Positions 1,586 through 21,399 of a stretch of DNA of 64,000 nt are shown piece by piece. Every line of letters begins with the position of its first letter. The stretch's first letter is position 1. Origin of the DNA: a virus; IMG/VR virus record IMGVR_UViG_3300020548_000009, positions 1-64,000 of that record; one strand, given 5' to 3'. The position numbers and the translations under genes are program-made. The notes under the pieces were generated by a model, which was not told the origin of the DNA, did not search any database, and was given only the letters and a program-made list of their open reading frames with translations.

Positions 1586-1646
1586 CCCAAAATATGGTGT
1601 TCCTTGATTATTGGATTTATTTTCGTGCGGAGCGTTCCTTCGGGGC
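1586..1646 (+). repeat. Dispersed ~62 bp repeat, copy 1 of 9
   Basis: CCAAAATATGGTGTTCCTTGATTATTGGATTTATT...CGTTCCTTCGGGGC. Confidence 0.9.
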
Positions 1647-1690
1647 AGTTGGGCTCCCGCTCGCGGCGGGTAGCCCCTCTGCCTTTTGGT

Positions 1691-1834
1691 TTAGTCCCAC
1701 TCGCCCAGAGTTCGGAGGATGTCCTCAGTCCACCTTCTGAAGTCGGGATTTAGGTCAAGGTCTAGCGACCAATCGTAAATCTCTACTCGCTCGTGGTCCT
1801 CTCGGGTGATTTTGTTTTGTTCTCTCGGTGTCAT
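1691..1834 (-). CDS. 47-aa hypothetical early protein
   Basis: MTPREQNKITRED...GEWD; SD AAGGAG; promoter at 1855-1883. Confidence 0.65.
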   Translation of the reverse strand: MTPREQNKITREDHERVEIYDWSLDLDLNPDFRRWTEDILRTLGEWD

Positions 1835-1898
1835 TGTTTTCTCCTTCTGTTTTTAGTATAACATGGCTCGGGCTGTTTGTCAACCCGAGCCATGTTTT

Positions 1899-2138
1899 TT
1901 ATTTTTCCGTGATTCCTGCCAGACGGCAACCCTTGCGGATTTTGCCCATTCCTTGCTTGTCGCTCATTGAGCCCCAACCGTTGCTTACTTGCGTAAGTGT
2001 TCCGTTGGCGATTTCTGCCATGAGCGTTGAATAGTGCCAGATTTGGCGGACGCCTTCAACCTCAACGGCTCTCCATGAAGAAGCCTTGACGGTCTTGCCG
2101 TTTCGCAATGGCACTGTTGCTAGTTCCTGTATTTTCAT
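1899..2138 (-). CDS. Hypothetical early protein
   Basis: ORF with SD AAGGAG and promoter at 2178-2206. Confidence 0.75.
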   Translation of the reverse strand: MKIQELATVPLRNGKTVKASSWRAVEVEGVRQIWHYSTLMAEIANGTLTQVSNGWGSMSDKQGMGKIRKGCRLAGITEK

Positions 2139-2276
2139 TGTGTTGTTCTCCTTGTTTTGGTTTTGCCTTACACCTTCAGTATAGGGTACTGTTAGACATT
2201 TGTCAACCTTATCCGACAGAAACTTATTTTTCTTTTTGAGGTTGCTTTTTGTCTGCCGTTGTGTTATACTATTATT

Positions 2277-2404
2277 AGTGGGGGGAGGAGACGACTCGCG
2301 CCCCTCTCCGGTAAGACGCAGCCCGTGCGCCCCTCTTCGCCCTAGGTCGCCCGTGGTGGCCTCTGGCCGCCCCTTCGGGGGAGGGCTCTCACCCTCCCCC
2401 TTTC
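2277..2404 (+). ncRNA. Candidate plus-strand sRNA A
   Basis: Promoter TTGCTT-N17-TATACT (2242-2270); GC-rich, no RBS/ATG; ends at hairpin GGGGGAGGG/CCCTCCCCC followed by TTT. Confidence 0.45.
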
Positions 2405-2408
2405 GGGA

Positions 2409-2651
2409 CTACTTCGCCTCTTGCGTGTTGAGCAAGGTTCCGTATGCGTACACGATGTCGTAGGCGAGGTTGCTACAACGTCGCTGTACGACCCTCAGTG
2501 CGCCCTGAATGAGGATGCTCTTCTCTTCGTCGTGGGGTGTGTCGGCTGCCTCTGCTTCGGCTGCCTCTACTTGGTCAATTAGTCGACGCAGAATAAACTT
2601 GACTTCCTGCGCCCTCTTCTGTGCTATTTCACTCTCGGTCATTGTGTCCAT
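2409..2651 (-). CDS. Hypothetical early protein
   Basis: Start refined to MDTMTESE after SD AAAGGAG. Confidence 0.7.
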   Translation of the reverse strand: MDTMTESEIAQKRAQEVKFILRRLIDQVEAAEAEAADTPHDEEKSILIQGALRVVQRRCSNLAYDIVYAYGTLLNTQEAK

Positions 2652-2783
2652 TGCTTTTCTCCTTTGTGTTGGGTGAGGCGGTTGCCCCACTACTTCTAGT
2701 GTATCACAACTACTTCTCTTCGTCAACCTGAAACGCAAATTATTTTCATTCTTTGCCCCTGCGCACTTTTTGCCCTGGGTGGG

Positions 2784-2918
2784 TCAGTCCCACTCTCGGC
2801 GGTCGGGTGCCGGCTTGCGCTTGTGGTGGATAGTTACCGCACGGGTGCGCAGTCCGTCTGCGAACGCCTGCTTATCCGCGGGGTTCCAGCCCCTCCGCTT
2901 GCTCTTTTGGTTTTTCAT
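2784..2918 (-). CDS. 44-aa basic small protein
   Basis: MKNQKSKRRGWNPADKQAFADGLRTRAVTIHHKRKPAPDRREWD; SD GGAGGTG; promoter at 2937-2965. Confidence 0.65.
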   Translation of the reverse strand: MKNQKSKRRGWNPADKQAFADGLRTRAVTIHHKRKPAPDRREWD

Positions 2919-3042
2919 CTTCACCTCCATAAGACCAGTGTATCACACTTTTAGTGGTTTCGCAACTCGTTCCGCAAGATTTTGCCCCTGCGCGAACTTC
3001 GGGCTGAGAGGGCACTTCTCGTCCCCCTCAGCCCTTGCGCTC

Positions 3043-3240
3043 TTAGGCGTTGGCGTTTTCTTTCTTTGCCTTCACGGTTGGGTTTCCCAACTTGCGAGCG
3101 ACATCTACGATGTCACCAGTCAGGTTCAGGAACACCGTTCCGTTCTCTCCGTCTCGGAGTTCAATGCTCAACATTCCGTTGGTCATTTCTGCCGTGACAT
3201 CGTCCGCGGTGAGGTGGACGAATAGGTGTGTGCTTATCAT
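3043..3240 (-). CDS. Hypothetical early protein
   Basis: Start MISTHLF after AAGGAAGG. Confidence 0.7.
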   Translation of the reverse strand: MISTHLFVHLTADDVTAEMTNGMLSIELRDGENGTVFLNLTGDIVDVARKLGNPTVKAKKENANA

Positions 3241-3416
3241 TTCTGTTTCCTTCCTTGTTGTGTAAGGCGGTTGCCCTACTACTATTAGTGTATCACACTT
3301 GCGAGAGTTTCGCAACTCTTTGCGCCACCTTTTTTAGATTCTGCCCCAGCGGCCTTCGCTGGGCGAGTTTGGGGTGGCAAGGCAAGGAGGTAGAACCCTG
3401 CCACCCTCACTCGTTC

Positions 3417-3704
3417 TTATCGGGCTACGGCGAGCGAAGCCTTGTTCAGGGCATCGCTACTCTCTCGCCATGCGTCGCTATCGGCTGTCTCTCCGTAGAA
3501 CGCTTGACGATAGATACGCTTGCCTTTGTGGTACAACTCAACCATAACGGCGTTTGCCTTTATGCTGTCGTCGTATGTCACTTCGGCTTCGTAGGTGACT
3601 TTGGTAATCTCGTCGTAAGCCCACCCCGTAGGGAATAACTCACTGGATACCTCAATCCACTCGCCCGTTCGTTTTGCGCCTCTCGGCAGTCTGTAATAAC
3701 TCAC
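3417..3704 (-). CDS. Hypothetical early protein
   Basis: ORF with GAGG SD and promoter at 3753-3781. Confidence 0.7.
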   Translation of the reverse strand: MSYYRLPRGAKRTGEWIEVSSELFPTGWAYDEITKVTYEAEVTYDDSIKANAVMVELYHKGKRIYRQAFYGETADSDAWRESSDALNKASLAVAR

Positions 3705-3859
3705 TTCATTACCTCTCTCTCTTGTAGGTACTTCGGTTTCCCTACTAACTACACTATACCAGATTGTTAGACACTTGACAACCTTATCGGGCAGATTCCC
3801 GAAGAATCTTTTTGCCGGCTCAGGTTGACTTTTCGCTCATTGTGTGATACAATGATAAT

Positions 3860-3951
3860 AGACGGGGGAGAGGAGAGCCCGCCGCGGCCTCCGCCCGAAC
3901 GTATGTTCGCCCGCGCGCCCCTCTTCGCCCGGGGGTCGTTCTCTTCCCTCA
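3860..3951 (+). ncRNA. Candidate plus-strand sRNA B
   Basis: Promoter TTGACT-N17-TACAAT (3825-3853); closing stem GGGGGAGAGGA/TTCTCTTCCCTC; shares GCGCCCCTCTTCGCCC with sRNA A. Confidence 0.45.
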
Positions 3952-4010
3952 ATCTACTTTTATTTTACAGTGGGGGTGTAACACGGTTTCCCGCGCTACA
4001 CCCCCATTTT

Positions 4011-4322
4011 TTATTTTGCGAAACTCGCTACTGCTACCGCTATGTCCCAAGCATCAAACTCATCTGCTGTACCGTAGTTTTCAGTAGCGTTTTTACCGAA
4101 GTACGGCAGATTATCTTCTAGGTGTTCACGCAACGCTTCAAGCGTTGAGGGACTATCGATAATCTCTTTCAGAACCTCACCTACTTGGCGGAGTCTGTTT
4201 CCGTTGTTGGTGTTCCGAAACTGATAAGCCTCGAACCAATAGGTTCGGCTTTCTTCTGCTTGTTTTAGTGCTTTGCGTAACTCATCAACATACTCTTGGG
4301 TAATCGGCTGTTCGGTAATCAT
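4011..4322 (-). CDS. Hypothetical early protein
   Basis: Start MITEQP after AAGGAG. Confidence 0.7.
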   Translation of the reverse strand: MITEQPITQEYVDELRKALKQAEESRTYWFEAYQFRNTNNGNRLRQVGEVLKEIIDSPSTLEALREHLEDNLPYFGKNATENYGTADEFDAWDIAVAVASFAK

Positions 4323-4523
4323 TGTTTTTTCTCCTTGTTGTTTTGGTTTTGCCTTACACTCTAAGTATAGCATCTGTTAGACACTTTGTCTACTCAGAAT
4401 AGACATTGTGAAATGTTTCTTTTGCCCGCCGCGGCCTCCGCCCGCGGGCAATTTTCTCCCACACCCTATTTTAGCGTGGGGGTGTTACACAGTTATTTTT
4501 TACTGTGTAACACCCCTTTGCTA

Positions 4524-4802
4524 CTAGGCGTTTGCCGTTGCGAGTTTGTCGTAACGGTGTACGGGCTTTATGTCTTCATTCACTGCTCGCCCGATGCTCT
4601 TAGCATTGAGTAGGTCAGTGAGAGTGCCAAGCATGACATCGTAGTAGACATACTCGCTACCGTTTGTGTACTCAATTACCAATTCACCGTAGGCGAGTTC
4701 GTAATTGTCCGACTCGCCATGTTGGGCGAGGTCAATCTCGCTCACCGTATAAGTGAGTTTCCTCACTGCCGTTGAGTTGAGTTGGGTTACTTCTATTTTC
4801 AT
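4524..4802 (-). CDS. KTSC domain protein
   Basis: S-x-A-V-x-x-L-x-Y...L-V-I-E-Y-x-N-G-S-x-Y-x-Y-Y-D-V...L-L-N-A-x-S-I-G pattern. Confidence 0.75.
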   Translation of the reverse strand: MKIEVTQLNSTAVRKLTYTVSEIDLAQHGESDNYELAYGELVIEYTNGSEYVYYDVMLGTLTDLLNAKSIGRAVNEDIKPVHRYDKLATANA

Positions 4803-4890
4803 TTTGTTTCTCCTTTGTTGTTTTGTTATTGCCTTACACTTCTACTATACCGTTGGTGGGGCAGATTTCCAACCTGCCCCACCAGATTTT

Positions 4891-5073
4891 TTAGCGTCCG
4901 AATTCTTCCTGCCAGAGTTCTTCTGCTTTGTCTAGGATTCTGTCGGCGTAGCGAGTGCTCATGTAGTCGTCGTCAATCCACGGAATGAATCCGTTTCCTG
5001 CGAGGTGCTCTATGGCTCTCTCTACGAATCGCTCTTGCTCTTCTTCGCCTAGTTCACTGAATTCGGTAATCAT
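4891..5073 (-). CDS. Acidic hypothetical early protein
   Basis: ORF with AAAGGAG. Confidence 0.7.
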   Translation of the reverse strand: MITEFSELGEEEQERFVERAIEHLAGNGFIPWIDDDYMSTRYADRILDKAEELWQEEFGR

Positions 5074-5246
5074 TGGTTTCTCCTTTGTGTTGTTTTGCCT
5101 TACACTCTAATTGTACAGCATGGGTGTACCATAATTGCGCATTTACGCCATTTGTCACACAATTGTCATAATCGGCTGTTAGGCTCACCTAACAAGTGAT
5201 AGTGCGAATTTTCACAAGCCTCCGACCGAAGGTCGGCTCCCGGTAG

Positions 5247-5308
5247 CCCAAAATATGGTGTTTCCTGATAATCGGATTTATTTAGTGCTGTGGCGTTTCC
5301 CTTGGGGC
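5247..5308 (+). repeat. Dispersed repeat copy 2
   Basis: CCAAAATATGGTGTTTCCTGATAATCGGATTTATT...GCGTTTCCCTTGGGGC. Confidence 0.9.
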
Positions 5309-5362
5309 TGAGCGAAGGGGGTGAGCGCCCGGCCTGGTCGCCCACCCCACATCATTTTGCTC

Positions 5363-5515
5363 TTAGAGCCACTCAGAGACGTCGCCGTCGGCGATTTCTG
5401 AGTAGTCCAATCCATGAGCGTCGGCTACTGCTTGCCAGAAGTCTTCTTCTGTAAGCGGTGCTTGACCCTCTTGAACGTCTTCTGGGAGATGCTCCCACCA
5501 CGTTGTTTTATTCAT
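5363..5515 (-). CDS. 50-aa acidic protein containing TEEDFWQAV
   Basis: Translated by hand; SD GGAAAGGA. Confidence 0.7.
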   Translation of the reverse strand: MNKTTWWEHLPEDVQEGQAPLTEEDFWQAVADAHGLDYSEIADGDVSEWL

Positions 5516-5539
5516 TGTGTTTCCTTTCCTGTTGGGTAA

Positions 5540-5740
5540 TTACAGTGTATCACACTCTAGGAGTTTTAGCAACTCTTTCTGGGTCATTTCCTGAATCTGT
5601 GCCGCGTCTAGGTCTGCGGGTTTGATGACCTCAATGATTTGGCCCCTGCCTTGCGCGACTTCGCGGGCTGAGTAGAGGCTGAGGTACGGGCCGAGGTAGA
5701 TATCTCCCGCGGCTGTGTTGAGTTTGATGATGTAGTTCAT
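5540..5740 (-). CDS. Hypothetical early protein
   Basis: Start MNYII after AAGGAG. Confidence 0.6.
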   Translation of the reverse strand: MNYIIKLNTAAGDIYLGPYLSLYSAREVAQGRGQIIEVIKPADLDAAQIQEMTQKELLKLLECDTL

Positions 5741-5803
5741 GTTTCTCCTTGGCCTCCGGGCGGCGGCTGGTGGGGCACTTCTCGTCCCCACCAGCCTGAC
5801 CCG

Positions 5804-6268
5804 TTAGGCGTTGATTAGTTCTTTCTGAGCCTTGACCCACTGCTCGTAGTTCCAGGCTTCGGTTGTCACGATTGCCTTGATTACCTTGAGGGGAATCTCG
5901 GCTTGGTTATTGCCGTACTTCACGGCGTTGTTTGCCCACTCAGTGATGCTGTAGGTGCTGTGGTTGGTGCTGAGTCCGACCATCTCATCTACCATCGCTG
6001 GCGTGATGTAGAGGTTGTGGCGTTCGCCATCTTCTCTCCACTCGTACATCATCGGGCTTTGGCTCATCGCCTCAACAGCCTTAGACCGACCGTAGTAGTC
6101 AGCCGCGTTGGCTTCGGTGATGCGCCCGTATCCGACTACGCCACCCCAGAAGATGAACGTCTGAATGTCGCCGCGTACGTTGTCATGACCGTACTCGTCT
6201 TTGACCCAGACTCCCTCGGGGTTCTTGGCGTAAGCCTTTGTATTTCCGATATCCCATGTCAATGGCAT
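5804..6268 (-). CDS. Hypothetical early protein
   Basis: Start MPLTWD after AAAGG. Confidence 0.75.
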   Translation of the reverse strand: MPLTWDIGNTKAYAKNPEGVWVKDEYGHDNVRGDIQTFIFWGGVVGYGRITEANAADYYGRSKAVEAMSQSPMMYEWREDGERHNLYITPAMVDEMVGLSTNHSTYSITEWANNAVKYGNNQAEIPLKVIKAIVTTEAWNYEQWVKAQKELINA

Positions 6269-6384
6269 TGTGTTTACCTTTCCTTTGTTTGTGTGGGGCG
6301 GTTGCCCCACTACTAATATTGTATCACCTATTCTGCTGTCTCACAACCTCGGCGGCAAGGTTTTGCCTCCGGGCGGTGCTCGCC

Positions 6385-6621
6385 CTACCTTTCGGTAGGG
6401 ACGAGACCAGCGGGCTTCAGTGAGTTATTCAGCACGAGGCCGTAGAAGTGGCCTGTGACTGCATCCTTCACGAACGAGTGTCCCATTGTGCCGTTTGGCG
6501 GTGCGCCAAGGCCACCTGAGCACTTCACCACGAGGGTTCCACGCTTTGGCTGGTGTGGGCGGGCATCAAAGATGTCCATCCCGACGGGTTCGTATCGGTA
6601 TTGCCTGATTTTCTTGGTCAT
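6385..6621 (-). CDS. Hypothetical early protein
   Basis: Start MTKK after GGAGG. Confidence 0.7.
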   Translation of the reverse strand: MTKKIRQYRYEPVGMDIFDARPHQPKRGTLVVKCSGGLGAPPNGTMGHSFVKDAVTGHFYGLVLNNSLKPAGLVPTER

Positions 6622-6769
6622 TGTGTTTTCCTCCATGATGTTAGTATAACAGATGTTTTGCGGTATTGCAACCTTCTTTTATTCCTTTATTGCCCCTGCC
6701 GGCTTTGCCGGAGGGAGGTCTTGGGCTGGTGGGGGAAGGAGGTAAGGAACCCCACCAGCCGCACTCGAC

Positions 6770-7036
6770 CTATGCTTTCAGTGTATCACACTTTTCACGC
6801 TCTCGCAACTCTGCCAGCGTGATTTCACCCTTTATCAAGGATGCCCACTCTGATAGGTCTGCGACATTGAGACGCTCCGGCTCGGTGCCGCAAGGGTACT
6901 TGGCGGCTTGGTGCCAAGCCTTTGCGTCACATTCTCCGCAAACGGGCGTGCCGTCAAACGACCACCACGAATGCGTGAGGTAGTTAGCCTCAGCCTCTTC
7001 TTTAGTTCCCTGAAACGGGACTGGAACATTTGCCAT
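6770..7036 (-). CDS. Small Zn-binding-like protein (CxxC...H...C)
   Basis: Start MANVP; CGECD...WHQAAKYPCG. Confidence 0.65.
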   Translation of the reverse strand: MANVPVPFQGTKEEAEANYLTHSWWSFDGTPVCGECDAKAWHQAAKYPCGTEPERLNVADLSEWASLIKGEITLAELREREKCDTLKA

Positions 7037-7112
7037 TTTCTTACCTTTCTTGTGTTGGTGGTGCTTCTGCCCCACATCTACAGAATACCAGATGTGGGGC
7101 AGAATGACAACC

Positions 7113-7490
7113 TTATTTTAGGATTTTTTCTAGTGTCTGTTGGTAGGTCTGCCATTGTGACGGGATACCGTTTTTTCCCATTGCCACAGCCTTGTCAAAG
7201 TCTGTTTCGCCAGAGCCCAGGATTTTTCGGACTGCCAGAATGCGGTCACGGACTGCTTCACGGTCTGCGCTATCACCGTCAAACGGGAATAGCGGGGACG
7301 GGTCAGTCAGATGAGCCATTGCCGCATCACAGATTTCGTCGTATGTGGCAAACGGATACAGCGAGGTTTCTTCACTGCTGAATAGATAGAACTCACAGCA
7401 GTATTCGCTGAACTGTTCGTATCGGTCTATTCTCTCTAATCTCTCTATTGCGCTTCCAGCATACGGGCTGGTACCTTGTGTGGTGGTCAT
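7113..7490 (-). CDS. Hypothetical early protein (leaderless)
   Basis: ATG 6 nt after CATAAT. Confidence 0.7.
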   Translation of the reverse strand: MTTTQGTSPYAGSAIERLERIDRYEQFSEYCCEFYLFSSEETSLYPFATYDEICDAAMAHLTDPSPLFPFDGDSADREAVRDRILAVRKILGSGETDFDKAVAMGKNGIPSQWQTYQQTLEKILK

Positions 7491-7615
7491 ACATACATTA
7501 TGCCGTACTGTTAGACAGATTACAACCTTATTCGTATTACAGAAGTATTACATTTGGCTTGTGCTTGTTCGCACTTTCACAAGCCCGGGGCCGGTGAAAT
7601 TGATTTTTGCCCCTG

Positions 7616-7678
7616 CCCCAAAATATGGTGTTCCTTGATTATTGGATTTATTCTGCTTTGCGCCGTTCCCCTTGGGGC
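7616..7678 (+). repeat. Dispersed repeat copy 3
   Basis: CCAAAATATGGTGTTCCTTGATTATTGGATTTATT...GCCGTTCCCCTTGGGGC. Confidence 0.9.
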
Positions 7679-7720
7679 TGGGCTGGTGGGGGATTGCCCC
7701 ACCAGCCTCGCTGACCATTC

Positions 7721-8131: not shown

Positions 8132-8193
8132 TGTGTTTATTGCCTTTCCTGTTTTGTTGGTAGTGGGGAGGTTTCCCCACTACTATTATTGTA

Positions 8194-8592: not shown

Positions 8593-8776
8593 ACTCTCAT
8601 TATACGACCTGTTAGACAAATTAGCAACTCTTTTAGTGAACTTTCTGAGTGGCCGGCTGACCACGGAGAGTGACCTCGGCCCCTGTGGCTTATTTGCATG
8701 GCTTGCAAATAAGCAACTGTTGTGATTTGCCCCTGGGATGGGCGGGCAGGAAAGGATTGCCTGCCCACCCTCCGCG

Positions 8777-8995: not shown

Positions 8996-9125
8996 TGTGT
9001 TTTCCTTTCTTGTGTTGTTACTTCTATTGTATCACACTTATTGTCAGTTTGCAACTCCGGTTGGAGATTCTGCCCCTGCGCTCGGGCGAGCCGTGGGCTG
9101 GTGGTTTCCCACCAGCCCGACAGAC

Positions 9126-9572: not shown

Positions 9573-9666
9573 TGTGTTGCCTTTCCTTGTTTTGTTGTGG
9601 GCGGGATTGCCCACTACTTAGATTGTACCACCGTGTTAGACATTTGTCAACTCGGCCAGCGAGAAT

Positions 9667-10000: not shown

Positions 10001-10088
10001 TTAGATTGTACCACATCAGGGGCATGATTCCAACCTTGTGCAAAGATTCTTTTGCTGGTGCCGGGCCCGGCAACAAACTCTGCCCCTG

Positions 10089-10153
10089 CCCCGAAAAAAT
10101 GGTGTTCCTTCATGTTCGGATTTATTCTGTTGTGCTGGCGTTTCCCTTGGGGC
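10089..10153 (+). repeat. Dispersed repeat copy 4
   Basis: AAAAAATGGTGTTCCTTCATGTTCGGATTTATT...GCGTTTCCCTTGGGGC. Confidence 0.9.
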
Positions 10154-10191
10154 CGGGTTCTGCCCCTGCGCGCGCCGGTGCGCTCGCGGCC

Positions 10192-10250: not shown

Positions 10251-11294
10251 TCAGACTCCGAGGAGTTGGAGAACCTTTCGGTCACTCTGCTCGGTCTTGC
10301 CCATGAGCGCGTTCATCATGTTGCGTTCTGCTCGGTTGTCCGAGTTTCCAACGACATGGTGGTTGTAAGTGTTGAACGCTTGAAGAACTCCAAGTGCTGA
10401 ACCCTTCCACGGTGCGACGCGCACATCGTAGTTGTAAAGACTGACAATTTCTTCGCGCTTGTTCTCTGCGCGAGTCACTGCCGCTTTATTCTTATCGTCT
10501 GGCATGAGCGTCGGAATCGGCGCGAGTGCTTCAAGCACTTTCTGCCATTCTGCGTCGCTCACTTTGTGCTCGGACAGTTTCGTAATCTCTGCCATGATGT
10601 TGTCGGTCATCTTGTGAACGATGCCGAGCGCATCACGCGCTGACTGAATCCGCATTGCCGAGTTCTTGCTGTGGCGAGTCTTGAATTGACTCGTGTTCTC
10701 TTTCATCGCCATTGCGTGAGTGTTGTCGCACACTACGAAAGTGGAGACACTCTTGTAGGTGGTTGCCAACATTCCGTTGTGCGATGTCGTGGCGAGCAAG
10801 TGAGGACGGACGCTGAATCCTTCCAACACTTCTACCGACTCTGGCATTTCCAAAGATACGAACGCGACTGCGCCGTTCTTCAAGATGCCTGCCGAGCCAA
10901 AGTTGATGTCATCATCAACGATGTTCGCCAAGTTCTGAACGAGCCATTCTGGATACTGGTGCGAGCAGTAATCTTTGCCGAAGATTTCCATCAGGTCGTT
11001 AGTGTCTGAGCGCAAGATTGCCTGACGCTCTACCTCTACGAACTTGATTGGGTTTCCGTTATCGTCCACGCCTGTGGCATCGTCAAGCGTTGCTGGAACG
11101 CGAACGAACACTGGCGCGCTGACTGCCGACCACGCGAAGAGCCGACGCAAGATGTCATCGGTCGGAATTGCGCCTTCGTAGTGGTTGGGCTCGGTGCCTT
11201 GTAGGTCGGCGCGGTAGTGCCACGCGTTGCCACGCTCGGCGGTGAACCCGACGAGGATGTTGGAGTTGAGCCACTCCATGGTTTCTTTGGACAT
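10251..11294 (-). CDS. DUF932 / phage-plasmid-like protein (TIGR03299-type)
   Basis: AWH motif near the N-terminus, LLATTSHNG, VVCDNT, RHS motifs. Confidence 0.8.
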   Translation of the reverse strand: MSKETMEWLNSNILVGFTAERGNAWHYRADLQGTEPNHYEGAIPTDDILRRLFAWSAVSAPVFVRVPATLDDATGVDDNGNPIKFVEVERQAILRSDTNDLMEIFGKDYCSHQYPEWLVQNLANIVDDDINFGSAGILKNGAVAFVSLEMPESVEVLEGFSVRPHLLATTSHNGMLATTYKSVSTFVVCDNTHAMAMKENTSQFKTRHSKNSAMRIQSARDALGIVHKMTDNIMAEITKLSEHKVSDAEWQKVLEALAPIPTLMPDDKNKAAVTRAENKREEIVSLYNYDVRVAPWKGSALGVLQAFNTYNHHVVGNSDNRAERNMMNALMGKTEQSDRKVLQLLGV

Positions 11295-11461: not shown

Positions 11462-11482
11462 TTATCCACAGGCTGTGGATAA
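11462..11482. promoter_or_regulatory. Inverted pair of perfect DnaA boxes, 3 bp apart
   Basis: TTATCCACA-ggc-TGTGGATAA. Confidence 0.75.
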
Positions 11483-11537
11483 CTTTCGGCCCGGGCCCCC
11501 GTTGTTTATATACAAAGCGTTATGGGTTTTGCCCCTG

Positions 11538-11599
11538 CGCGAAAATATGGTGTTCCATGAATATTGGTTTTATTTGGGCAGCGGCCGTTCCCTTGGGGC
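11538..11599 (+). repeat. Dispersed repeat copy 5
   Basis: AAAATATGGTGTTCCATGAATATTGGTTTTATT...GCCGTTCCCTTGGGGC. Confidence 0.9.
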
Positions 11600-11605
11600 C
11601 AGGGG

Positions 11606-11692
11606 GCCCGCCCAGGACAGAAAGGGAATAAGAACCTGGGCGGGCGCCACACCCGACGACTGGGACACAAGGAAGGAAAGACCCAGCCGCGT
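11606..11692 (-). ncRNA. Candidate two-hairpin anti-RBS sRNA
   Basis: Promoter TTGACA-N16-TGtCATACT (11698-11725); two stems with C/U-rich loops complementary to phage RBSs. Confidence 0.6.
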
Positions 11693-12927: not shown

Positions 12928-13146
12928 TTAGTGCTTCCCGATGTCTAGAAAACCTGTTTCGTTGCCTTCTGGGTCAGACATTACGAGAGCGTCGGTCCCA
13001 TCAGTGAACTCCAAAATGCATGTTGGTGTTTTTGAATAAAGCCAACCTGTTTCTTTGTTCTCTTCGTCCGTCAGTTCACGAACGTTCTTGATGGTCTTGC
13101 CGACAAGCGACTCAGCGTAATGAGTTTTGTTTATTACTGTGCTCAT
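12928..13146 (-). CDS. Hypothetical protein
   Basis: ORF coupled to the XRE gene. Confidence 0.7.
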   Translation of the reverse strand: MSTVINKTHYAESLVGKTIKNVRELTDEENKETGWLYSKTPTCILEFTDGTDALVMSDPEGNETGFLDIGKH

Positions 13147-13409
13147 ACCTTGATGCCTGTCACGAGTTCTTCTGGACGCGTATCAAGCGCGTAGCAGATA
13201 CGGAAAAACGTATCCAGCGACGGAGAGAAGTGTCCATTCTCGATTCTGTTGATGGTCTTGCGGTCAATGCCTGCGCTCTTAGCCAAATCGCCCTGAGAGA
13301 GACCGATGGTCTCGCGCAGGCTCTTTACTCGGCTTGCAACTTCAAGCAGTGCCTTTTTGTTCATTGCGTTGTTCATTGTTTGTCTTTCTTTCTGTGGGTG
13401 TTGTGCCAC
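13143..13409 (-). CDS. XRE-family HTH transcriptional regulator
   Basis: LRETIGLSQGDLAKSAGIDRKTINRIENGHFSPSLDT. Confidence 0.9.
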   Translation of the reverse strand: MAQHPQKERQTMNNAMNKKALLEVASRVKSLRETIGLSQGDLAKSAGIDRKTINRIENGHFSPSLDTFFRICYALDTRPEELVTGIKV

Positions 13410-13510
13410 ACTTACATTGTACCATGACCGAGTCAGGCTTGCAACCTTCCCGAAAAAATATGTTCGCGGATATTGTTGCCGTCTGACCCGGCCAAGGATT
13501 TTGCCTCTGG

Positions 13511-13570
13511 CCCGGAAATATGGTGTTCCAGAGAAATCGGATTTATTTTCGTAGCGCCGTTCCCTTGGGC
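13511..13570 (+). repeat. Dispersed repeat copy 6
   Basis: AAATATGGTGTTCCAGAGAAATCGGATTTATT...GCCGTTCCCTTGGGC. Confidence 0.9.
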
Positions 13571-13598
13571 TGGTTGTACAGCCGCAAGGGACAGGTGC

Positions 13599-13769
13599 CT
13601 AGCCGCGCTTCTTGAGGTAAGCCTCAATAGCGGACTTGATGACTGCGGACTTGCTGACCTTGTCCTCTTTGGAAACGGTCGCGATTTTGCGAGCCATGTC
13701 CTCGGAAAGACGGAAGGCGATAAGTGGGTACTTAGCCTTTGGGGTAGTTGCTGTCTTGGTCTTGCTCAT
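13599..13769 (-). CDS. Ribbon-helix-helix (CopG/Arc-like) DNA-binding protein
   Basis: IAFRLSEDMARKI...VSKSAVIKSAIEAYL. Confidence 0.8.
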   Translation of the reverse strand: MSKTKTATTPKAKYPLIAFRLSEDMARKIATVSKEDKVSKSAVIKSAIEAYLKKRG

Positions 13770-13972
13770 TGCTTTCTTCTTTCTATGTGTGTTGGTATTA
13801 CATCTCAATTATACATTGTGTCTAACGCATCTACAACCTCTGTGCGCGAGTTCACTCGCGCTTTGGGGTTAAGTGACGGTTATATGACGGTTAAGGGACG
13901 GTTAGATAGAAATGGTACAGGCTCAAACCCTTACTGGGTAAGGGTTTCCGGGCTTTTGTACCATATTTGCGG

Positions 13973-14119: not shown

Positions 14120-14121
14120 GG

Positions 14122-14802: not shown

Positions 14803-14859
14803 TTCTTATTCCCTTTCATTGAGTTGGTTATTGCTTACACTTACATTGTAGCACAATAA

Positions 14860-15958
14860 TCAGCCATCTCCAACCTCTCCACGACAGTATTCCCGAGGAG
14901 AAGGCATTTCTTCGACAGTTCCGTTCATTTGTGCGTTTGTATATTGCTCTGAGTAGGCACCGCGGTCTGCGTCGGACATCACATTGTCCCACGCATTCCA
15001 GTCGGCGTCATCCCAGTTTTGTGTCTCGATGCGTACCGGCGGGGCAAGAAACCACGTCCCACTTTCAGCATCACAGTAGACAATGCTCATTGTTTGTTCC
15101 TTTCGTTTATTTTGATGTCAATCGCTATTACTGCCGCCACTAAAGCAAACAACATGGCCACCACGATGATGTCAATCATTCGTGACCCCACGATGCTTCG
15201 CCGTGTTTTGTTTTGTTGTAGCACTCAGTGTGGTAGTTGCCGTAGTTGTAGATGTTTCCTTTTACGGACTCAACACGAACTTCGGTGTCTAGGTAAATCT
15301 GTTTTCCACACTCGTCGCACTCAAAGCCTGAGCACTCAGCGCAACCCCAGCCGTCATCGACTGGAATACGGTTCACGAACAGGCCGTTGCCGCTACCAAA
15401 CGCCGTTGAGCGTTGGCAGTAGACACATGGGTCAATAGTCGTTATCACAGCATCCCCAATTCCTTGAGGTCGTTGTTTACTTGCTCTTGAACCCAGACGC
15501 GGTTGGCTTCAGACGCCGCGTAATAGGCGACTGCCTGCTTGGTTTGGGTCTGCTTGAGTTGCTCGCCGTAGCCAGCCTTCTCAAGCAGTCCCCAAACTTC
15601 GTCTAAGCACTCGCCGTCATTCGCCTCGTCTCCGTGGCGCGTAAGGGCTGTGATGATGTCGTTGATAAGGGTTGGGTAATCGGTTGTGTTGGTCATACTT
15701 AGAGTGTATCACACCATTTGCCGTTTGACAACCTTATTCGGCATCAAGTGGCTGAATATTCCACTTGGTACACCAGTGGTCGTAGCAACCATCGCACAGA
15801 TAAGTGTTGTCCTGGTAAATACGCTTAGTGTTGTTCTCGCCGGAGCCAACCGGTGCCAAGTTCCAGTCGTCAATCATGACAACATCGCACTCGGAACAGA
15901 TTCGCTGTTTTGTTTTTGTCATCTCAATCACCACGAACTCTGGTAGGTAAACTCCCAC
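14860..15958 (-). CDS. Run of small hypothetical genes (14860-15090, 15176-15448, 15445-15696, 15734-15958), two with CxxC Zn-ribbon motifs
   Basis: Coupled ORFs following promoters. Confidence 0.6.
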
Positions 15959-16398
15959 TCATCAGGCATCTTGAGGATGTCTGTAAGCATGGAGATACTT
16001 CTCTTTAGTTCCTCAAAGTAATACTCGTCGTAGTCCTGAGAGCCGAAGAAACAGCCAGCAGAAGTTGGCAAGAGTTCATCCGCCTTCTTCGGGTTCTTCT
16101 TGACTTCTTTGCACAAGCCGAGAAGTTCCTGAAGTTTTTCACGGGAGACATAAGTCGTGCGACAGTCGTCCTCTCCGTTTTGGCAGTTTTCTACAAACCA
16201 TTGGTGGATTTGATTTGCCTTACGCCAGTAGCCGACTGAGATTTCCAGATAGGCAGATGGCATAAAGGTATGTTTCATGTAACTGTCAGGAATATTGGCA
16301 AACTCCTTGAGTTCGTCAAACGCCTTCTTGCTTTCTTCACCACGCCAGTTCGCACTTGAGTAGAACTTCTTGGCATTGAGGTACATATCCAGTCCCAT
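15928..16398 (-). CDS. Conserved phage hypothetical protein (MGLDMYL...YWRKANQIH...FFG...YQSSW family)
   Basis: Motif pattern recalled from many phage proteins. Confidence 0.75.
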   Translation of the reverse strand: MGLDMYLNAKKFYSSANWRGEESKKAFDELKEFANIPDSYMKHTFMPSAYLEISVGYWRKANQIHQWFVENCQNGEDDCRTTYVSREKLQELLGLCKEVKKNPKKADELLPTSAGCFFGSQDYDEYYFEELKRSISMLTDILKMPDEWEFTYQSSW

Positions 16399-17872
16399 TA
16401 GAGAACTCCTGCTTCAATCCACTTGGCAAGGTCTGTTGCTGGCATCGGCGTCAGTTTTTCAACTTCGTTGATTTCAACAACATCCCAAGCCTTGTCCCAA
16501 TCAAGAACTTCAACCCAAAGGATTTTGTTTCTGTCAAAGGGCTCGTTGCTGTATTTCTCCATAGCCTCATCCGCATCGTTGGCTTCAACGATGTATTGGA
16601 GGTTTATGTCAATTGACTGCTGAATAATAAATTGTTTCATTGTGTTTGCCTTTCTATTTGGTTGGTACTTACATTGTAGCACAATCTAGGTCGTTTTCCA
16701 ACCTAGATGTCGTTGCCGTCCTCATCTTGGAAGATGAGTTCGTGGCGGGACGGGGCTGAGCGCATATCTTCGTATGCCAACCTAGCCACCATCTCCATCA
16801 CATCGTCGTCGGATACTTCCAACTCGGGGTCGTTGTTGTTTTCCCGAATTGACTCTTTGACTGACTCCACATCGTAGGTGAAGGTACGGATGACGTTAAT
16901 TGTCTCCATCACGCATACTCCTCTTCCTCTTCCTCGCGGCGCGCCTCATCTTCGGCGCACTGAGGAATGAGACTGGTGAAGCCTTCGTTGGGGTCAGCCT
17001 CGTTGGTTTCCACTGCTGAGATGAACTTGAGTGGGCATGAATCTTCGTACCACTTCTCAAGCGTTGCCAGCATTACATCTGGATACGCGGTCTGAGTGTG
17101 TTCGTAGTTTTCTCGGAACCACTGAGCCTGAGTCTCGTCAAGAGCAAGATAAATCTTGTGGCAACCGTCAAACGCGATACATTTCGCGTATTCCAGTTGT
17201 TCCTTGACTTCGTGCCAATAATCTTCCATTACAGCCATTGTGTTTTCTTCTTTCTGTTGAGTTGGTTATTACTTACAATTACAGTATAGGGGTCTGTATC
17301 ACAGTTTGCAACCTTATTGGTCAAATATTCCCTCATCGTGCCAACGATAGGACTCGTTTTGCTGAATTACTTCTTCTGAAGGTACGCCAATTATCTGAAG
17401 TGTGTGTTGGTCAATGATACGGAAACACCGTTCACATAGGTAGTGGGTTCCGTCCCACCCTTGCTCGTCGGGCTCGCACCTCGCGCCAATTTCGCTACAA
17501 GGGCTGAATCCGTCAAAGTGTGGCTCGTTCTTACACTTACAAATCCACCAGTCTTCACTGTCTTCAATGATGTAGTCAGGAATACTTTCTGGTGGGGCAA
17601 GGAGCATGTCCGTCCAGTCTGGTTTATTTTCCATTCTTAGCCGCCCAGTACGCCTGTACCTCGGTTTGTTCATCGTCTGTGCCGTCCGATAGGACAATCT
17701 CAAACTGGTGAAGCCCGTTGATGACGCGGAAGGTCTCGGCGTTCGCCACACTGTCCCAAGTGAGAGCATTACGAAGCGAATTGGTAGTTCCGCCTCGGTC
17801 TCCCAAGAGTTTTGCGCAGAAGCGTCGGTAGCCTTTGTCGTTGGTTTTCTGTAATAGGTATTGTGTTGTCAT
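16398..17872 (-). CDS. Run of small acidic hypothetical genes (16398-16640, 16703-16912, 16909-17238, 17314-17634, 17624-17872)
   Basis: Coupled ORFs following promoters. Confidence 0.6.
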
Positions 17873-17984
17873 GACTCTATTGTAGCACAAACAATCCGGT
17901 TTCGCAACCTTGTTCACAATTTCACAAATACTTTCAGGTATTTTATTTGAGACACTTTTCAGTTTTTGTCTTATTTGCCCCTAG

Positions 17985-18046
17985 CCAAAAATATGGTGTT
18001 CCATGGAAAATGGTTTTATTTTTAGGGACAGGCCGTTCCCTTGGGC
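17985..18046 (+). repeat. Dispersed repeat copy 7
   Basis: CCAAAAATATGGTGTTCCATGGAAAATGGTTTTATT...GCCGTTCCCTTGGGC. Confidence 0.9.
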
Positions 18047-18048
18047 CC

Positions 18049-18285
18049 CTACGGGCGGTCTGCGTCCTTCACCGATGCAAGCACGCCCATGTCGTTGAAT
18101 TTATTCCGAAGTTCTCGGACGGCATCTACCGACATGCAGACGTGCCCGGTGACAGTCCAACCCATGCCGCGCTTTGCTTCATGCAGCATGAGTTCTCCTG
18201 TTTCATCTAACTCGCGAAGAACTGCAATTACTTTCAGTCCCTCACTCCGAGTGTTGACAGCAGCGCTGACAGTGATTGGCTTCAT
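18049..18285 (-). CDS. Ribosomal protein bL12 (L7/L12) C-terminal-domain-like protein
   Basis: KVIAVLREL..G.L.L.EAK...MS.D...EL..KF.DMGV.ASVK parallels the bL12 CTD. Confidence 0.5.
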   Translation of the reverse strand: MKPITVSAAVNTRSEGLKVIAVLRELDETGELMLHEAKRGMGWTVTGHVCMSVDAVRELRNKFNDMGVLASVKDADRP

Positions 18286-18561
18286 GTCCGGCAATCTAGC
18301 CCACCCATCTTCCAAAGACGGTGTAGCCGTCTTCTTCGCGCCGCACAATCCATTCCGTGCCCGGATATCGCTTCTTATACTGCTGGGCTTTTGAGTGACC
18401 CGTGCGTGCGATGTTTCCGGTGCAGTACACCGCCCACGCGCCTGGAGTCTCTTTGAGTTTGTCTACGAACTGCTTCACCTGATACGGGCTGCCGTTGCGC
18501 GGTCCCGGCGGCTGCCGGAACTCCGTTTTCCTTGTCATGTTATGTATCTTTCTTTGTTTTA

Positions 18562-19023
18562 TTAAAAGGGAAGTCTGAACCACATGTCCTTGCCGCGCGC
18601 ACAGTCATGCACGCTGCTTAGCCCAATCCGCTTGTACATCGCCCGCGTATTCGCGTTTGAGTCAATGGCGTGGTATTTACCTGTGTCGTTACCAAACTTT
18701 TTAAATACTCGATTGACCATCTGATACTCCTTGATTGCCGGAGCATCTTGTCCATCGATGTCTGTGTCGTTGAAGAGGGCGAGGTCTGGCTGCCATCCGG
18801 TACGGTCATAGATGCGCTTCAACGTGGGAATGGCCCACTTGATGTTGCGTGCCGTAATCAGGATGGTGAACTCCGGTTCAAGGAGTTCTGTCATCCACTT
18901 GCGATAGTCCTCGTGATTGCTCACGAAGTCATCAAAGGCGTGGTTACGCATCTCGCTGAAGTTGGACGACAAAGCCACGTTCAAGTCCATCAGTACGATG
19001 CGCTCGGTTGACTTCTTAGCCAT
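18562..19023 (-). CDS. HAD-superfamily-like protein (degenerate motif I, DLN)
   Basis: IVLMDLN, ILITAR, AIKE, AIDSN. Confidence 0.55.
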   Translation of the reverse strand: MAKKSTERIVLMDLNVALSSNFSEMRNHAFDDFVSNHEDYRKWMTELLEPEFTILITARNIKWAIPTLKRIYDRTGWQPDLALFNDTDIDGQDAPAIKEYQMVNRVFKKFGNDTGKYHAIDSNANTRAMYKRIGLSSVHDCARGKDMWFRLPF

Positions 19024-19516
19024 TCTTCTCTCGTTCTCTATCCGCTTTCGGGTCTCTGACTTCCCACGAACCACGCTGTATTTTGCGGAAGTAAGGGGAT
19101 GTTTTGAGATAGTTTAGAACCGTCGGATAGGAAAATCCCGAAAGGCCGACAATCTCTTCAGTGGTTACTTCCTTGTAAAGATTGTTCTTGCACCACTCTT
19201 CAAGGGCTTTCCACTTGTCTGCGCGTCGCTCCGGCTTCTTTTCCTGAACGGCCTCTTTTAGCCGTTCTTTTCCAAGATATTCCGAAACCAGATACTCAAT
19301 GACTGGTGTGGAGATTGAGTAGTCGCGCATAAAGCGAACCACGTTGCCTGCGGACGGCGTCTGCTGCCAGACCTGCATGACATACAGCCCGCGGATGAGT
19401 TCGCCCATACGGGCCGACTCGTCGCGCGGAACTTTGTATATCGTGCCGTGCTTGGCTGCAGCGTCGCGCCACAGTTCTGCGTTTTTCTTATCAACTATTT
19501 CGTCTGTAATTTTCAC
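19016..19516 (-). CDS. Hypothetical protein with C-terminal winged-HTH-like region
   Basis: VTTEEIVGLSGFSYPTVLNYLK...RGSWEV. Confidence 0.6.
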   Translation of the reverse strand: MKITDEIVDKKNAELWRDAAAKHGTIYKVPRDESARMGELIRGLYVMQVWQQTPSAGNVVRFMRDYSISTPVIEYLVSEYLGKERLKEAVQEKKPERRADKWKALEEWCKNNLYKEVTTEEIVGLSGFSYPTVLNYLKTSPYFRKIQRGSWEVRDPKADREREKNG

Positions 19517-20427
19517 CAGCCGTCTCCTGCTGCATCGTAGATTCCGTTAAAAAATGCCATATTCCAAAACGCGCTATTGCCACGTGAGAGCCCTGCGCAC
19601 ATCTCGCAAATCCATGCGCCGCCTTCTTGCTCTATGAGCATTGGGCGAGGCATGCAGCACGCATCACACTCAGCATCCGGCTCATGCGCCACGGTCACGG
19701 TGTACGTGACGATGGGCGTGGTCGGTGCACTCTTGTGACGACTGGGCCTTTTCTTACGACGGGCCATAAGCGCTTGAATCCTCTCAGTAGTTGAAATGGG
19801 GTTGGGAATTGATGGAATTTGAGGAATTTAAATACTCCTCCAGTGAATTGCATACTCGGGAAAAAGATAGCCCACAGCATGGACACGGCAACCAACGTTG
19901 GCGACGCATCCGTCACTGGCAGTATCCCAAAGGACAGCACCAAGATGACGAACCACTGGAACCACTTGTTCTTGATTAATTGCATTCGGTTACTCCTCTG
20001 GGATTAGGTTGGTATTGAGTGTAAGCCAGTGGCGAAGGTATGACGACATGTCTGCATACATTGCGCCTTCCAGCATCGGGTCAAAGTCGCCGCCGAATGA
20101 TTCGGGGAAATGCTTGACGATGGTCGTCCAGAAAGACTCAAGGCCCTTGTCAACGGCCTCTTCTACACGTGCTTCTAGTTGGATATTCATTTGGTTCACC
20201 TCCTTCATTGGGTTGGTTATCATGCTCTATCACAGTATATCATGCTCTAGCACAATCAACAACCCGGAACAACCAGATTCTTGATTGCGTAGTCACCCTA
20301 TCCATGATAGAGCGTGATAGAGCATACGACAACCTCGTTCCGGAAATATTTTTGACTCTCGGTAGTTTTATTTTGAGTGACGCTCGTGAAAGTGCGCACA
20401 AGCACAATCACGTATTTCTGCCTCTGT

Positions 20428-20482
20428 CCCAAAAAAATGGTGTTCCAGCCAGGATGGCTTTATTCTGCTCGCGCCGTTTCTT
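20428..20482 (+). repeat. Dispersed repeat copy 8 (runs into a -10 TAGACT and leaderless ATG at 20494)
   Basis: AAAAAATGGTGTTCCAGCCAGGATGGCTTTATT...GCCGTTTCTTAGACT. Confidence 0.8.
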
Positions 20483-20493
20483 AGACTGTTTTC

Positions 20494-21081
20494 ATGCCGC
20501 GCCCACGAGACAATCAGCGCAGCCGCCTGTACGCAGCAGAGTGGGAGTGCTTTGGGTGGACACACATGCAGTTCAAAGACTTTCCGGCAACCGAGAAATA
20601 CCTGTGGAAGGTTTTATCAAACAGATATGTCCAGCGTAAATACCAAATCGCCCGCGATATCAAGTCTGGAATCATTCCGTTGAAAATATCCAAGGGCGAC
20701 GGCTCTCGTGTTGCATGGGCCCGGATACTCCCAGAAAAAATGTGGGTGTCATTCCCGCGCAAATGGAGGAACGACTTCACCGTCATCCATCAAATCGCCC
20801 ATCTGCTCACACCACCGGATGTTCAGGAACACGGAAGAGAGTTTTGCCGAACGTACCTGCATTTAGTACTTGTCATGATGGGCCGGGAAAAGCAAAAACA
20901 ACTGAAGGCCGCGATGAAGAAACATAACTGTAAGTACTCCAAGAGACACACGCCATACAAAAGACCATTCACTCAGGAGGAAAAGGACGCAATGCTCGCT
21001 AGATTGATGAAGAACAACTATGGCAACAAATCACAAATGGAACACGCTGAACATCATGCGCTTTTACGCGCGAATCGGTAA
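20494..21081 (+). CDS. Rv0185/TIGR04338-like metallohydrolase homolog with HQxxH
   Basis: RDNQRSRLYAAE N-terminus; VIHQIAHLL...EHGREF. Confidence 0.65.
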   Translation: MPRPRDNQRSRLYAAEWECFGWTHMQFKDFPATEKYLWKVLSNRYVQRKYQIARDIKSGIIPLKISKGDGSRVAWARILPEKMWVSFPRKWRNDFTVIHQIAHLLTPPDVQEHGREFCRTYLHLVLVMMGREKQKQLKAAMKKHNCKYSKRHTPYKRPFTQEEKDAMLARLMKNNYGNKSQMEHAEHHALLRANR

Positions 21082-21346
21082 GCAATTCAACGCTGATATC
21101 TACCTACAGTTCATTGGACCACAGGAAGCATCACACGCAAAGGTCAAAACACTCCCATCACGCTCTGAAATCCTCAATATCATCAGACGACACGTCGAAA
21201 ATGGTTGGTGTATCAGAGTGGGGAACAATGTGGTGATTACCGACAAGGGGATTGCTGCACTGATGGCGTGGGAAAAACAAAAATATCTACGGGAAGCAGA
21301 AGTTTCTTCCGAAACACTACGACGGAGAAAATTATTGCAGGACTAG
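21020..21346 (+). CDS. Hypothetical protein (winged-helix-like)
   Basis: ...VVITDKG motif. Confidence 0.55.
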   Translation: MATNHKWNTLNIMRFYARIGKQFNADIYLQFIGPQEASHAKVKTLPSRSEILNIIRRHVENGWCIRVGNNVVITDKGIAALMAWEKQKYLREAEVSSETLRRRKLLQD

Positions 21347-21350
21347 GTTA

Positions 21351-21399
21351 CGAAAAAATGGTGTTCCAGCCGATTTGGGTTTAATTCGCGCCGTTTCTT
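21351..21399 (+). repeat. Dispersed repeat copy 9 (shortened)
   Basis: AAAAAATGGTGTTCCAGCCGATTTGGGTTTAATTCGCGCCGTTTCTT. Confidence 0.75.

Follow-up and report, generated by a model that had tools for sequence, protein, structure and literature searches.

What purpose is served by a long, asymmetric motif that recurs in a single orientation among the small genes of a phage? The question is raised by the IMG/VR virus record IMGVR_UViG_3300020548_000009 (84,684 bp), whose first 64 kb, called here the window, carry nine copies of an element that an earlier inspection of the letters alone (hereafter the sequence-only reading) had noticed and left unexplained. Our analysis confirms the element as real: it is a cis element found across a whole lineage, unusually long and unusually invariant, and a recognition site on duplex DNA, read in the gene direction and heading each multi-gene unit. 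Its general kind, the co-oriented phage regulatory repeat, is known; its sequence and its layout are new, and it fits none of the classes tested. As to its function, we tentatively favor a second, phage-lineage-specific class of promoter, which would be used by the host RNA polymerase together with a phage factor.

When the window was searched with a 17-mer core allowing up to 3 mismatches, 9 matches were obtained, all on the plus strand, starting at positions 1587, 5248, 7618, 10092, 11540, 13513, 17986, 20430 and 21351. Shuffled sequence yielded a mean of 0.17 core matches and a maximum of 2. The nine positions given by the sequence-only reading were all recovered, 0–3 nt from its coordinates and in one common orientation (9/9), and the distance from copy to copy was 0.9–4.5 kb, which keeps the upper bound of the 1–4.5 kb first estimated and lowers the other. 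A core profile scan run with the filters off (--max), i.e., a profile search of the kind proposed with that reading, set the copies cleanly apart from the noise, with 9 copies at E ≤ 3e-9 and the next match at E = 0.48. The full 84,684-bp record contained the same 9 copies and zero extra, bearing out the remark that none lies past 21.4 kb.

Long open reading frames (ORFs) amount to 59 kb on the minus strand vs. 9 kb on the plus strand. Because the genes are mostly on the minus strand, the element is to be read as the reverse complement of the version first described. In short, its gene-strand form is GCCCAAGGGAAC-N9-14-AATAAATCC-N9-GGAACACCATWTTTT-GGnCAGGGGCARA and, in full, GCCCAAGGGAAC-N(9-14)-AATAAATCC-N9-GGAACACCAT(A/T)TTTT-GG(n)CAGGGGCA(A/G)A, the fourth and G-rich block (CAGGGGCARA) stretching it to ~80–95 bp. 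Conservation was counted over 52 core-anchored copies in five contigs. About 13 positions were identical in 52/52 copies, namely A-18, T-16, A-14, A-13 and the ten-base GGAACACCAT save one G/A position, and the base following GGAACACCAT was A and T equally often. Blocks 2 and 3 were separated by an AT-rich spacer of 9 bp in 52/52 copies, and block 1 was placed 9–14 bp upstream, most commonly 11–12 bp. The three blocks of the sequence-only reading thus stand, but of the spacers that it called variable one is fixed (9 bp) and one is flexible (9–14 bp). Two GGAAC-type boxes, in blocks 1 and 3, and an AT-rich box can be recognized in the element. Besides, the core has lineage-wide variants: CCATTTTTT (T variant) was found in 12/12 copies of the contig G003, CCATA (A variant) in 10/11 copies of its close relative G002, and CCATATTCT (ATTCT) in 6/6 copies of G008. 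Judged from their sequences, these variants are a case of concerted evolution, and they suggest either a trans-acting reader common to the copies or gene conversion between them. In degenerate copies, ACCATATTYT is retained and GGAACAC is lost. In G008 (IMGVR_UViG_3300044547_000928), blocks 2–3 are in tandem at 947–1051, as two copies 67 bp apart.

Neither RNA nor DNA secondary structure was kept, as illustrated by 0 conserved pairs in an RNAalifold analysis of 43 copies, which upholds the no-hairpin claim of the sequence-only reading. No dyad symmetry was found in the element, and no Rfam family matched at the elements at E ≤ 1. The 0 conserved pairs also ruled out an N4-type hairpin promoter and an HUH- or attC-type single-stranded DNA hairpin site. 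A 3–4 bp stem closing block 1 was rejected since it was not kept across copies. Likewise, a small peptide encoded across the core was rejected, as a start codon is absent, the 10-nt GGAACACCAT core is invariant and one variant adds a stop. An intrinsic terminator was not retained either, the T-run being preceded by GGAACACCA rather than by a stem; the terminator scan returned a single row inside any copy (20447–20459, plus strand, copy 2), corresponding to a 5-bp stem within the variable spacer, opposite the gene strand. What is supported is a site on duplex DNA that is asymmetric and composed of several blocks, in line with the multi-part site first suggested.

The contig is, by its gene content, a siphovirus, with genes for a tape measure protein, a major head protein, a portal and a head protease; its large ORFs code for the tape measure protein, a helicase, fibre proteins and a secreted protein of low complexity. 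An actinobacterial host is indicated by a further gene, for a WhiB-family protein, and the DNA of the contig was found in many lake-water metagenomes and in no RNA run; three raw-read runs contained no reads of the phage. No match to 1–22 kb or 40–62 kb was returned by Megablast among 50,697 phage records, and the closest cultured relatives are Brevibacterium and Gordonia phages, at only ~45% protein identity. Tyrosine and serine recombinases (PF00589, PF00239) were absent from the five contigs, with control genomes positive in the same search. The phage is probably lytic, given that neither an integrase nor a resolvase turned up, and would thus have no need of an immunity function.

Related contigs were fetched with the DUF932 protein encoded at 10251–11294. 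Four contigs at 82–90% protein identity carried 7–13 copies apiece, all co-oriented with the genes and in a single region, and 52/52 core-anchored copies in the five contigs ran in the same direction as the genes. Metagenomes provided 81 further copies at 44 loci, with 0 loci of mixed orientation, and additional viral contigs also carry the element. The sequence-only reading had envisaged that the element might be absent from relatives; instead, it is conserved in them. Relatives at 51% and 33% identity lack it. Among 185,579 bacterial genomes, 60 single matches were found in unrelated taxa, about the chance number, which argues against both a motif of the host and a signal of prophages. When viral contigs were scanned with a 14-mer, chance matches only were obtained, and a literature search for the core string returned unrelated primers only. 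In two ~105-kb contigs, G003 and G004, the element region spans 21–27 kb and wraps the contig ends (in G004, 81.4–106.3 kb plus 0.8–2.1 kb). Because the region crosses their ends, these records, described as linear and 75–79% complete, may be whole, circularly permuted genomes.

Along the genes, the usual order is a gene end, a GC-rich hairpin without U-run, the element, a variable stretch of 60–180 bp, a sigma-A-like promoter of the form aGGTTGnnn-N17-TAcAAT, and the next genes. The 60–180 bp stretch differs between copies and carries various palindromes. The next sigma-A-like promoter lay 68–184 bp from the element, with no helical phasing, which argues against the element being a direct activator of the downstream promoter. 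In 1–20 kb, 35 sigma-70-like promoters were found vs. 13.2 expected, nearly all on the minus strand and many with a TGn-extended −10 box, and there were ~3 sigma-A-like promoters per element; in 20–40 kb, 24 were found vs. 21.9 expected, i.e., no enrichment. The “early region” of the sequence-only reading was a label deduced from the letters, and the promoter enrichment in 1–20 kb makes it a reasonable one. A second co-oriented repeat, (c)aGGGGCAGAA, was found 19 times in the forward and 3 times in the reverse direction in a 24 kb region, and it also forms block 4. Its minus strand sites include 2937–2988, 6318–6369 and 9026–9076, with ~10 more in 1–22 kb. Outside the elements, most copies precede the −35 box of a sigma-A-like promoter by 14–16 or 22–25 nt, these promoters coming after GC hairpins, and a few copies occur elsewhere, e.g., in a 5′ leader hairpin or inside genes. 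In position, the repeat resembles an activator site or an UP-type contact placed at about −55. The elements thus carry at their 3′ edge a motif found elsewhere at about −55 of ordinary early promoters.

These observations can be brought together by a promoter. Indeed, the copies are co-oriented with the genes in the five contigs and at the 44 metagenome loci, they are confined to the promoter-rich small-gene region with a T7-like spacing of 0.9–4.5 kb, and each of them follows the end of the preceding unit (a stop codon and a GC hairpin or T-run), upstream of the next genes. The fixed 9-bp spacer gives a −35/−10-like geometry, and the distance of block 1 flexes like that of upstream promoter sites. 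The lineage-specific core variants and the tandem copies in G008 point in the same direction, as do the small helix-turn-helix (HTH) and WhiB regulators encoded just upstream of the element region. Moreover, the lack of dyad symmetry and of conserved pairing favors an asymmetric reader over an ordinary dimeric operator. Through its co-orientation, its place at unit heads, its −35/−10-like geometry and its T7-like spacing, a phage-specific promoter is the best fit among the four options of the sequence-only reading. In the mechanism that we propose, the host RNA polymerase would use the element only once redirected by a phage-encoded factor, much as for the T4 middle promoters (MotA/AsiA), Mu Pm/Mor or the repeated promoters of T7-like phages. 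AATAAATCC would lie at about −37 to −29, and CATWTT, exactly 17 bp downstream of TAAATC, would act as a −10-like hexamer. The specificity factor would contact GGAACAC, just upstream of this hexamer, block 1 (CAAGGGAAC) would be placed at about −55, and transcription would start in the G-rich tract following the T-run. With the geometry TAAATC-N17-CATWTT, A8 and T9 are invariant and would correspond to −11 and −10.

Other results weigh against this promoter. TAAATC and CATWTT agree with the sigma-70 consensus at 6/12 positions (2/6 + 4/6), the most invariant bases (GGAACAC) would lie in the promoter spacer, and an alternative −10 register, TWTTTT, is without the essential A at −11 in 26/52 copies. 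The five contigs gave no sigma region 2 match and no over-threshold sigma region 4 match, nor any match to T7-type RNA polymerase (PF00940), a search in which the control genomes were also silent. Besides, the gene units already have their ~3 sigma-A-like promoters per element, transcription from copy 1 would run antisense into a conserved plus strand operon, and no conserved 5′ leader hairpin was found downstream of the element (mean z = −0.5). The promoter scan of both strands reported no site at any element. A sigma-A consensus promoter was accordingly rejected on both strands, its best register reaching 6/12, and the sigma-54, extracytoplasmic function (ECF), sigma-28 and sigma-32 consensus sequences, compared by eye, did not fit on either strand.

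Two proteins are candidates for the factor that the promoter would require. The first, encoded at 25017..25301 (−), is a 94-amino-acid stand-alone HTH protein with sigma-70 region-4-like features. Its Sigma70_r4_2 score of 16.8 bits is under the 25.7-bit cut-off. Its 53 homologues share 71–98% identity and an invariant recognition helix, and nearly all are 94–95 amino acids long (three are shorter, with 52–79). The AlphaFold2 model, with a predicted local distance difference test (pLDDT) score of 93.9, shows a long helix then an HTH, which resembles DeoR, many sigma-4 domains and Mu Mor/C with Z of 5–7.8, i.e., the generic range; the protein had no PDB sequence match, and Foldseek returned nothing significant (E ≥ 0.5). 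ECF-type region 4 is established to read GGAAC boxes, and the 25017–25301 protein is a candidate for such a reader, a lead and not a finding. The second, a WhiB-like protein encoded at 23789–24343, is similarly a lead only. It has a full-length relative in G001–G004 and G010 (60–73% identity); in G008, G009 and the element-free G006, the matches were weak and confined to the WhiB domain, and it was therefore rejected as a conserved partner. A new sigma-appropriation promoter class can be drawn from these leads, although we consider it unlikely in this specific form: the 25017–25301 protein, possibly with the WhiB-like protein, would retarget the host RNA polymerase to the 9–13 sites, the former reading the GGAAC/AATAAATCC boxes and the latter docking on region 4 of the host sigma-A.

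The main rival of the promoter is a polar operator, which we judge doubtful but worth serious consideration. A phage DNA-binding protein, either a two-headed monomer or two proteins acting jointly, would insulate or silence the tandem early units, as a roadblock to the elongating polymerase, in a stoperator-like manner, or through long-range repression. An asymmetric site strictly co-oriented with transcription is also what characterizes the Cluster A stoperators (PMC9283540). The two GGAAC-type boxes with the AT-rich box would suit such a reader, and small DNA-binding proteins are encoded nearby (sigma-4-like HTH, XRE HTH, ribbon-helix-helix (RHH) and WhiB-like). Copy 2, with the divergent plus strand operon on one side and the first early promoter on the other, occupies a position typical of autoregulation, and copy 1 stands where the upstream operon must end. 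However, the element is upstream of the unit promoters, with one copy per ~3 of them, so that most early promoters would escape a roadblock. It is missing from the remaining genome, whereas stoperators are genome-wide, and the finding of no integrase or resolvase makes the phage a probably lytic one. In addition, ~35–80 conserved bp far exceed what a 13-bp operator needs.

It is improbable that the element mainly serves as a recombination linker, i.e., a sequence at module borders allowing co-infecting relatives to gain, lose or swap cassettes, as proposed for the promoter-early-stem-loop (PeSL) cassettes (PMC2839356, PMC4122927). When the sequence-only reading's idea that breakpoints between relatives map to the element was examined, 47 ends of high-scoring segment pairs (HSPs) were found within −80 to +45 of the element vs. 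21 expected (2.2-fold), these counts not being independent across genome pairs; 28 HSP ends lay at +0 to +50 of the core. One G004 unit (the element plus ~1 kb) is missing from G000, with one border at −59 of an element, and the cassette bounded by two orthologous elements measures 5.9 kb in G002 vs. 0.8 kb in G003. In a lake run, 2/6 loose contig ends fell ≤40 nt from an element, but such ends may be assembly artefacts at repeats; Logan contigs break at elements because the copies share long identical words. However, any constrained motif amid fast-evolving intergenic DNA gives the same breakpoint pattern, and gene order is mostly colinear in the five contigs. No site-specific recombinase was found there (PF00589, PF00239), and at least 13 invariant positions over diverged phages require a sequence-reading function beyond shared homology. 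Integron attC sites and site-specific cassette recombination were ruled out, with neither a tyrosine or serine recombinase nor a structured site. Breakpoints thus accumulate at the edges of the element, as they would around any conserved island, and a site-specific form of recombination has fallen for want of a recombinase and of conserved structure. Recombination at the element is probably passive, through shared homology, and likely a side effect.

Still harder to sustain, and given little credit here, is a site at which virion or replicating DNA would be nicked or loaded strand-specifically, analogous to those of T5, phiKMV-like phages and tf, or a loading point for a sliding factor. Like known nick sites (PMC3517423), the copies all lie on one strand and have a consensus of at least 9 bp; the T-run, with GC-rich DNA on its flanks, should be easy to melt, and the variable distance to the downstream promoters fits a DNA-tracking factor. 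However, the known nick sites are 7–20 bp long, genome-wide and unclustered (PMC3517423), and no nickase or HUH-type gene was recognized among the proteins scanned. Equally slim, in our view, are the chances that the element acts as RNA, that is, as an unstructured motif in read-through transcripts for protein binding, processing or termination control. It is co-oriented with transcription and lies in the 3′ region of the preceding unit, whose GC hairpins, mostly without U-tract, may allow read-through, and its T-run resembles the TTNTTT pause motif. Against this stand the 0 conserved pairs in 43 copies, the lack of any Rfam match and the trial stem of 3–4 bp around block 1, which was not kept; the A/T ambiguity at one position and the invariance along the 10-nt GGAACACCAT indicate read-out from duplex DNA. 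Finally, a parS-like loading site for the two phage proteins with a ParB_N domain encoded at 26392–29258, as the sequence-only reading had offered, is very hard to credit and gained no positive evidence: the P1 parS is a multi-box asymmetric site, but these proteins show ParB_N only, with neither HTH nor ParA detected, their genes are within a methyltransferase cassette with the look of DNA modification, the site has no palindrome, and 9–13 co-oriented copies are not a parS pattern.

The individual copies, all read on the minus strand, can be followed in gene order. Copy 1 (21330..21419; nhmmer E = 7e-15) is atypical: blocks 2–3 are intact, block 1 is shrunk to GAAGAAAC, and the G-rich block 4 is missing. 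It lies between convergent genes, facing the 3′ end of two plus strand genes, and directly follows an A-run, a short hairpin and a T-run after the stop codon of the gene at 21459–22013; this structure is weak (−8.2 kcal/mol, z = 0.02). The atypical copy was found at the same position in 4/4 relatives. Copy 2 (20410..20502; E = 9.8e-19) departs from the intergenic placement described in the sequence-only reading, in that the ATG (20494) of a conserved plus strand gene directly adjoins its degenerate block 1. Copy 3 (17970..18057; E = 8.4e-20) is followed by a promoter, TTGCGA-17-TACAAT, which begins 95 bp downstream of the core. Copy 4 (13492..13586; E = 1.2e-21) is located between an RHH gene (13599–13808) and an XRE-HTH gene (13143–13409), and copy 5 (11518..11614; E = 9.1e-22) has an inverted DnaA-box pair downstream (11462–11482). 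Copy 6 (10071..10165; E = 1.3e-20) has the GGGGCAGA motif on either flank and the stop codon of the DUF932 gene (10251) upstream. For copy 7 (7594..7684; E = 6.1e-22), the next sigma-A-like promoter, TTGTAA-17-CATAAT, begins 109 bp downstream of the core. Copy 8 (5225..5317; E = 5.5e-18, core scan E = 2.6e-10) has the core variant GAAACACCAT, and copy 9 (1569..1660; E = 1.9e-18), the last in gene order, has the core AATAAATCCAATAATCAAGGAACACCATATTTTGG, a GC hairpin upstream and a CRP-like palindrome downstream (1511–1526).

Several neighboring features were noted in passing. The plus strand genes at 20494–21081 and 21020–21346 are kept at 45–78% identity in four relatives, a conservation that marks them as real genes. 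They make up a conserved two-gene operon (20494–21346) opposing all its neighbors and flanked by copies 1 and 2; for its 195-amino-acid product, which has an HQIAH motif, the protein atlas gave only weak SprT/ImmA-like leads, and its 108-amino-acid product has, by eye, a winged-helix look. The genes flanking copy 4 on the minus strand are of the XRE/Cro-type HTH (13143–13409, Pfam E = 5e-14) and of the CopG-type RHH (13599–13808, E = 8e-4). The GC-rich hairpins upstream of most copies have stems of 9–13 bp and no U-run (e.g., 11620–11660 and 7690–7720, and in the relatives L119 and L120), and many have loops of 12–18 nt rich in CCTTTCC/CCTCCTTTC, resembling the 3′ end of 16S ribosomal RNA. The pair at 11462–11482 is a perfect inverted pair of DnaA-box-like 9-mers, TTATCCACAgcCTGTGGATAA, located between copy 5 and the DUF932 promoter, and it is found at the same place in 4/4 relatives. 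CRP/GlxR-like palindromes, TGTGA-N6-(G/T)(C/A)ACA, occur on the minus strand at 1511–1526, 7566–7581 and 17911–17926, between elements and promoters. Another motif, CTGTCTAACA, lies within the −35/−10 spacer of some sigma-A-like promoters (154–163, 1009–1018 and 7509–7518, minus strand) and has many copies in relatives; from this position, it looks like the operator for a repressor of those promoters. The more distant, element-free relatives carry lineage-specific repeats of their own: L122 (1–12454) has more than 20 copies of ACATTACA(G/C)AAACT just upstream of −35 boxes, and L124 (1–21026) has CTTGACTCAAGTCAAG promoter/operator units and GAAGGGCAGGCAC before start codons. Further along the window, the minus strand ORF at 49911–52604 encodes a protein of 897 amino acids whose start resembles a signal peptide and whose C-terminus has a membrane segment; it contains long Thr/Pro- and Glu-rich tracts and had neither a Pfam nor a PHROG match.

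Repeated one-way intergenic motifs are a means by which phages time and insulate gene expression, and the earlier classes (T7 promoters, MotA boxes, stoperators) each revealed a new way of steering the host RNA polymerase. Transcription control in actinobacterial phages is known mostly from the mycobacteriophages, and the element marks a lineage of abundant, uncultured actinobacterial phages of lake water. Should it turn out to be a promoter read by a WhiB factor or by a stand-alone sigma-4-like one, it would represent a new route of polymerase redirection, and as a promoter it would also offer a portable regulatory part for actinobacteria. As a polar operator or a nick site, it would extend those small families to a new phage group. 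Under any reading, it is a sharp sequence tag for spotting these phages in metagenomes.

Compared with known systems, the element shares with the Cluster A stoperators an asymmetric sequence, an orientation tied to transcription, many intergenic copies and an actinobacterial phage as carrier (PMC9283540). The stoperators are 13 bp long and occur in more than 20 copies throughout the genomes of temperate phages with an immunity repressor, and their reader is a monomer with two DNA-binding domains (PMC9283540); here, instead, 35–90 bp are conserved in 9–13 copies within one region, and no integrase was found. The PeSL cassettes of T4-type phages likewise have a hairpin and a conserved element at module borders in a hyperplastic small-gene region, with indel or replacement borders between relatives at the motif (PMC2839356, PMC4122927). 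However, a PeSL combines a terminator stem-loop with an early promoter of the ordinary sigma-70 type (PMC2839356, PMC4122927), whereas the present element is not of the sigma-A type and its upstream hairpin varies in sequence and distance. The nick sites of T5, phiKMV-like phages and tf have in common with it a one-strand consensus, several to 14 copies and small lineage-specific variants among related phages; they differ in being 7–20 bp long and spread along the genome (PMC3517423). As for phage-specific promoters, no phage RNA polymerase or sigma gene was recognized here, the element has 3–4 blocks over 60–90 bp vs. 23 contiguous bp or a single −30 box, and it is limited to the small-gene region. 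Nevertheless, like the T7/T3/SP6, T4 MotA-dependent middle and Mu Pm/Mor promoters, its copies are highly conserved, lineage-specific, co-oriented and intergenic. Their spacing of 1–4 kb at the heads of gene groups, the variants proper to each lineage and the tandem arrangement with host-type promoters are shared as well, and the near-invariant, co-oriented intergenic repeats heading gene groups are a trait that the element has in common with T7-like promoters.

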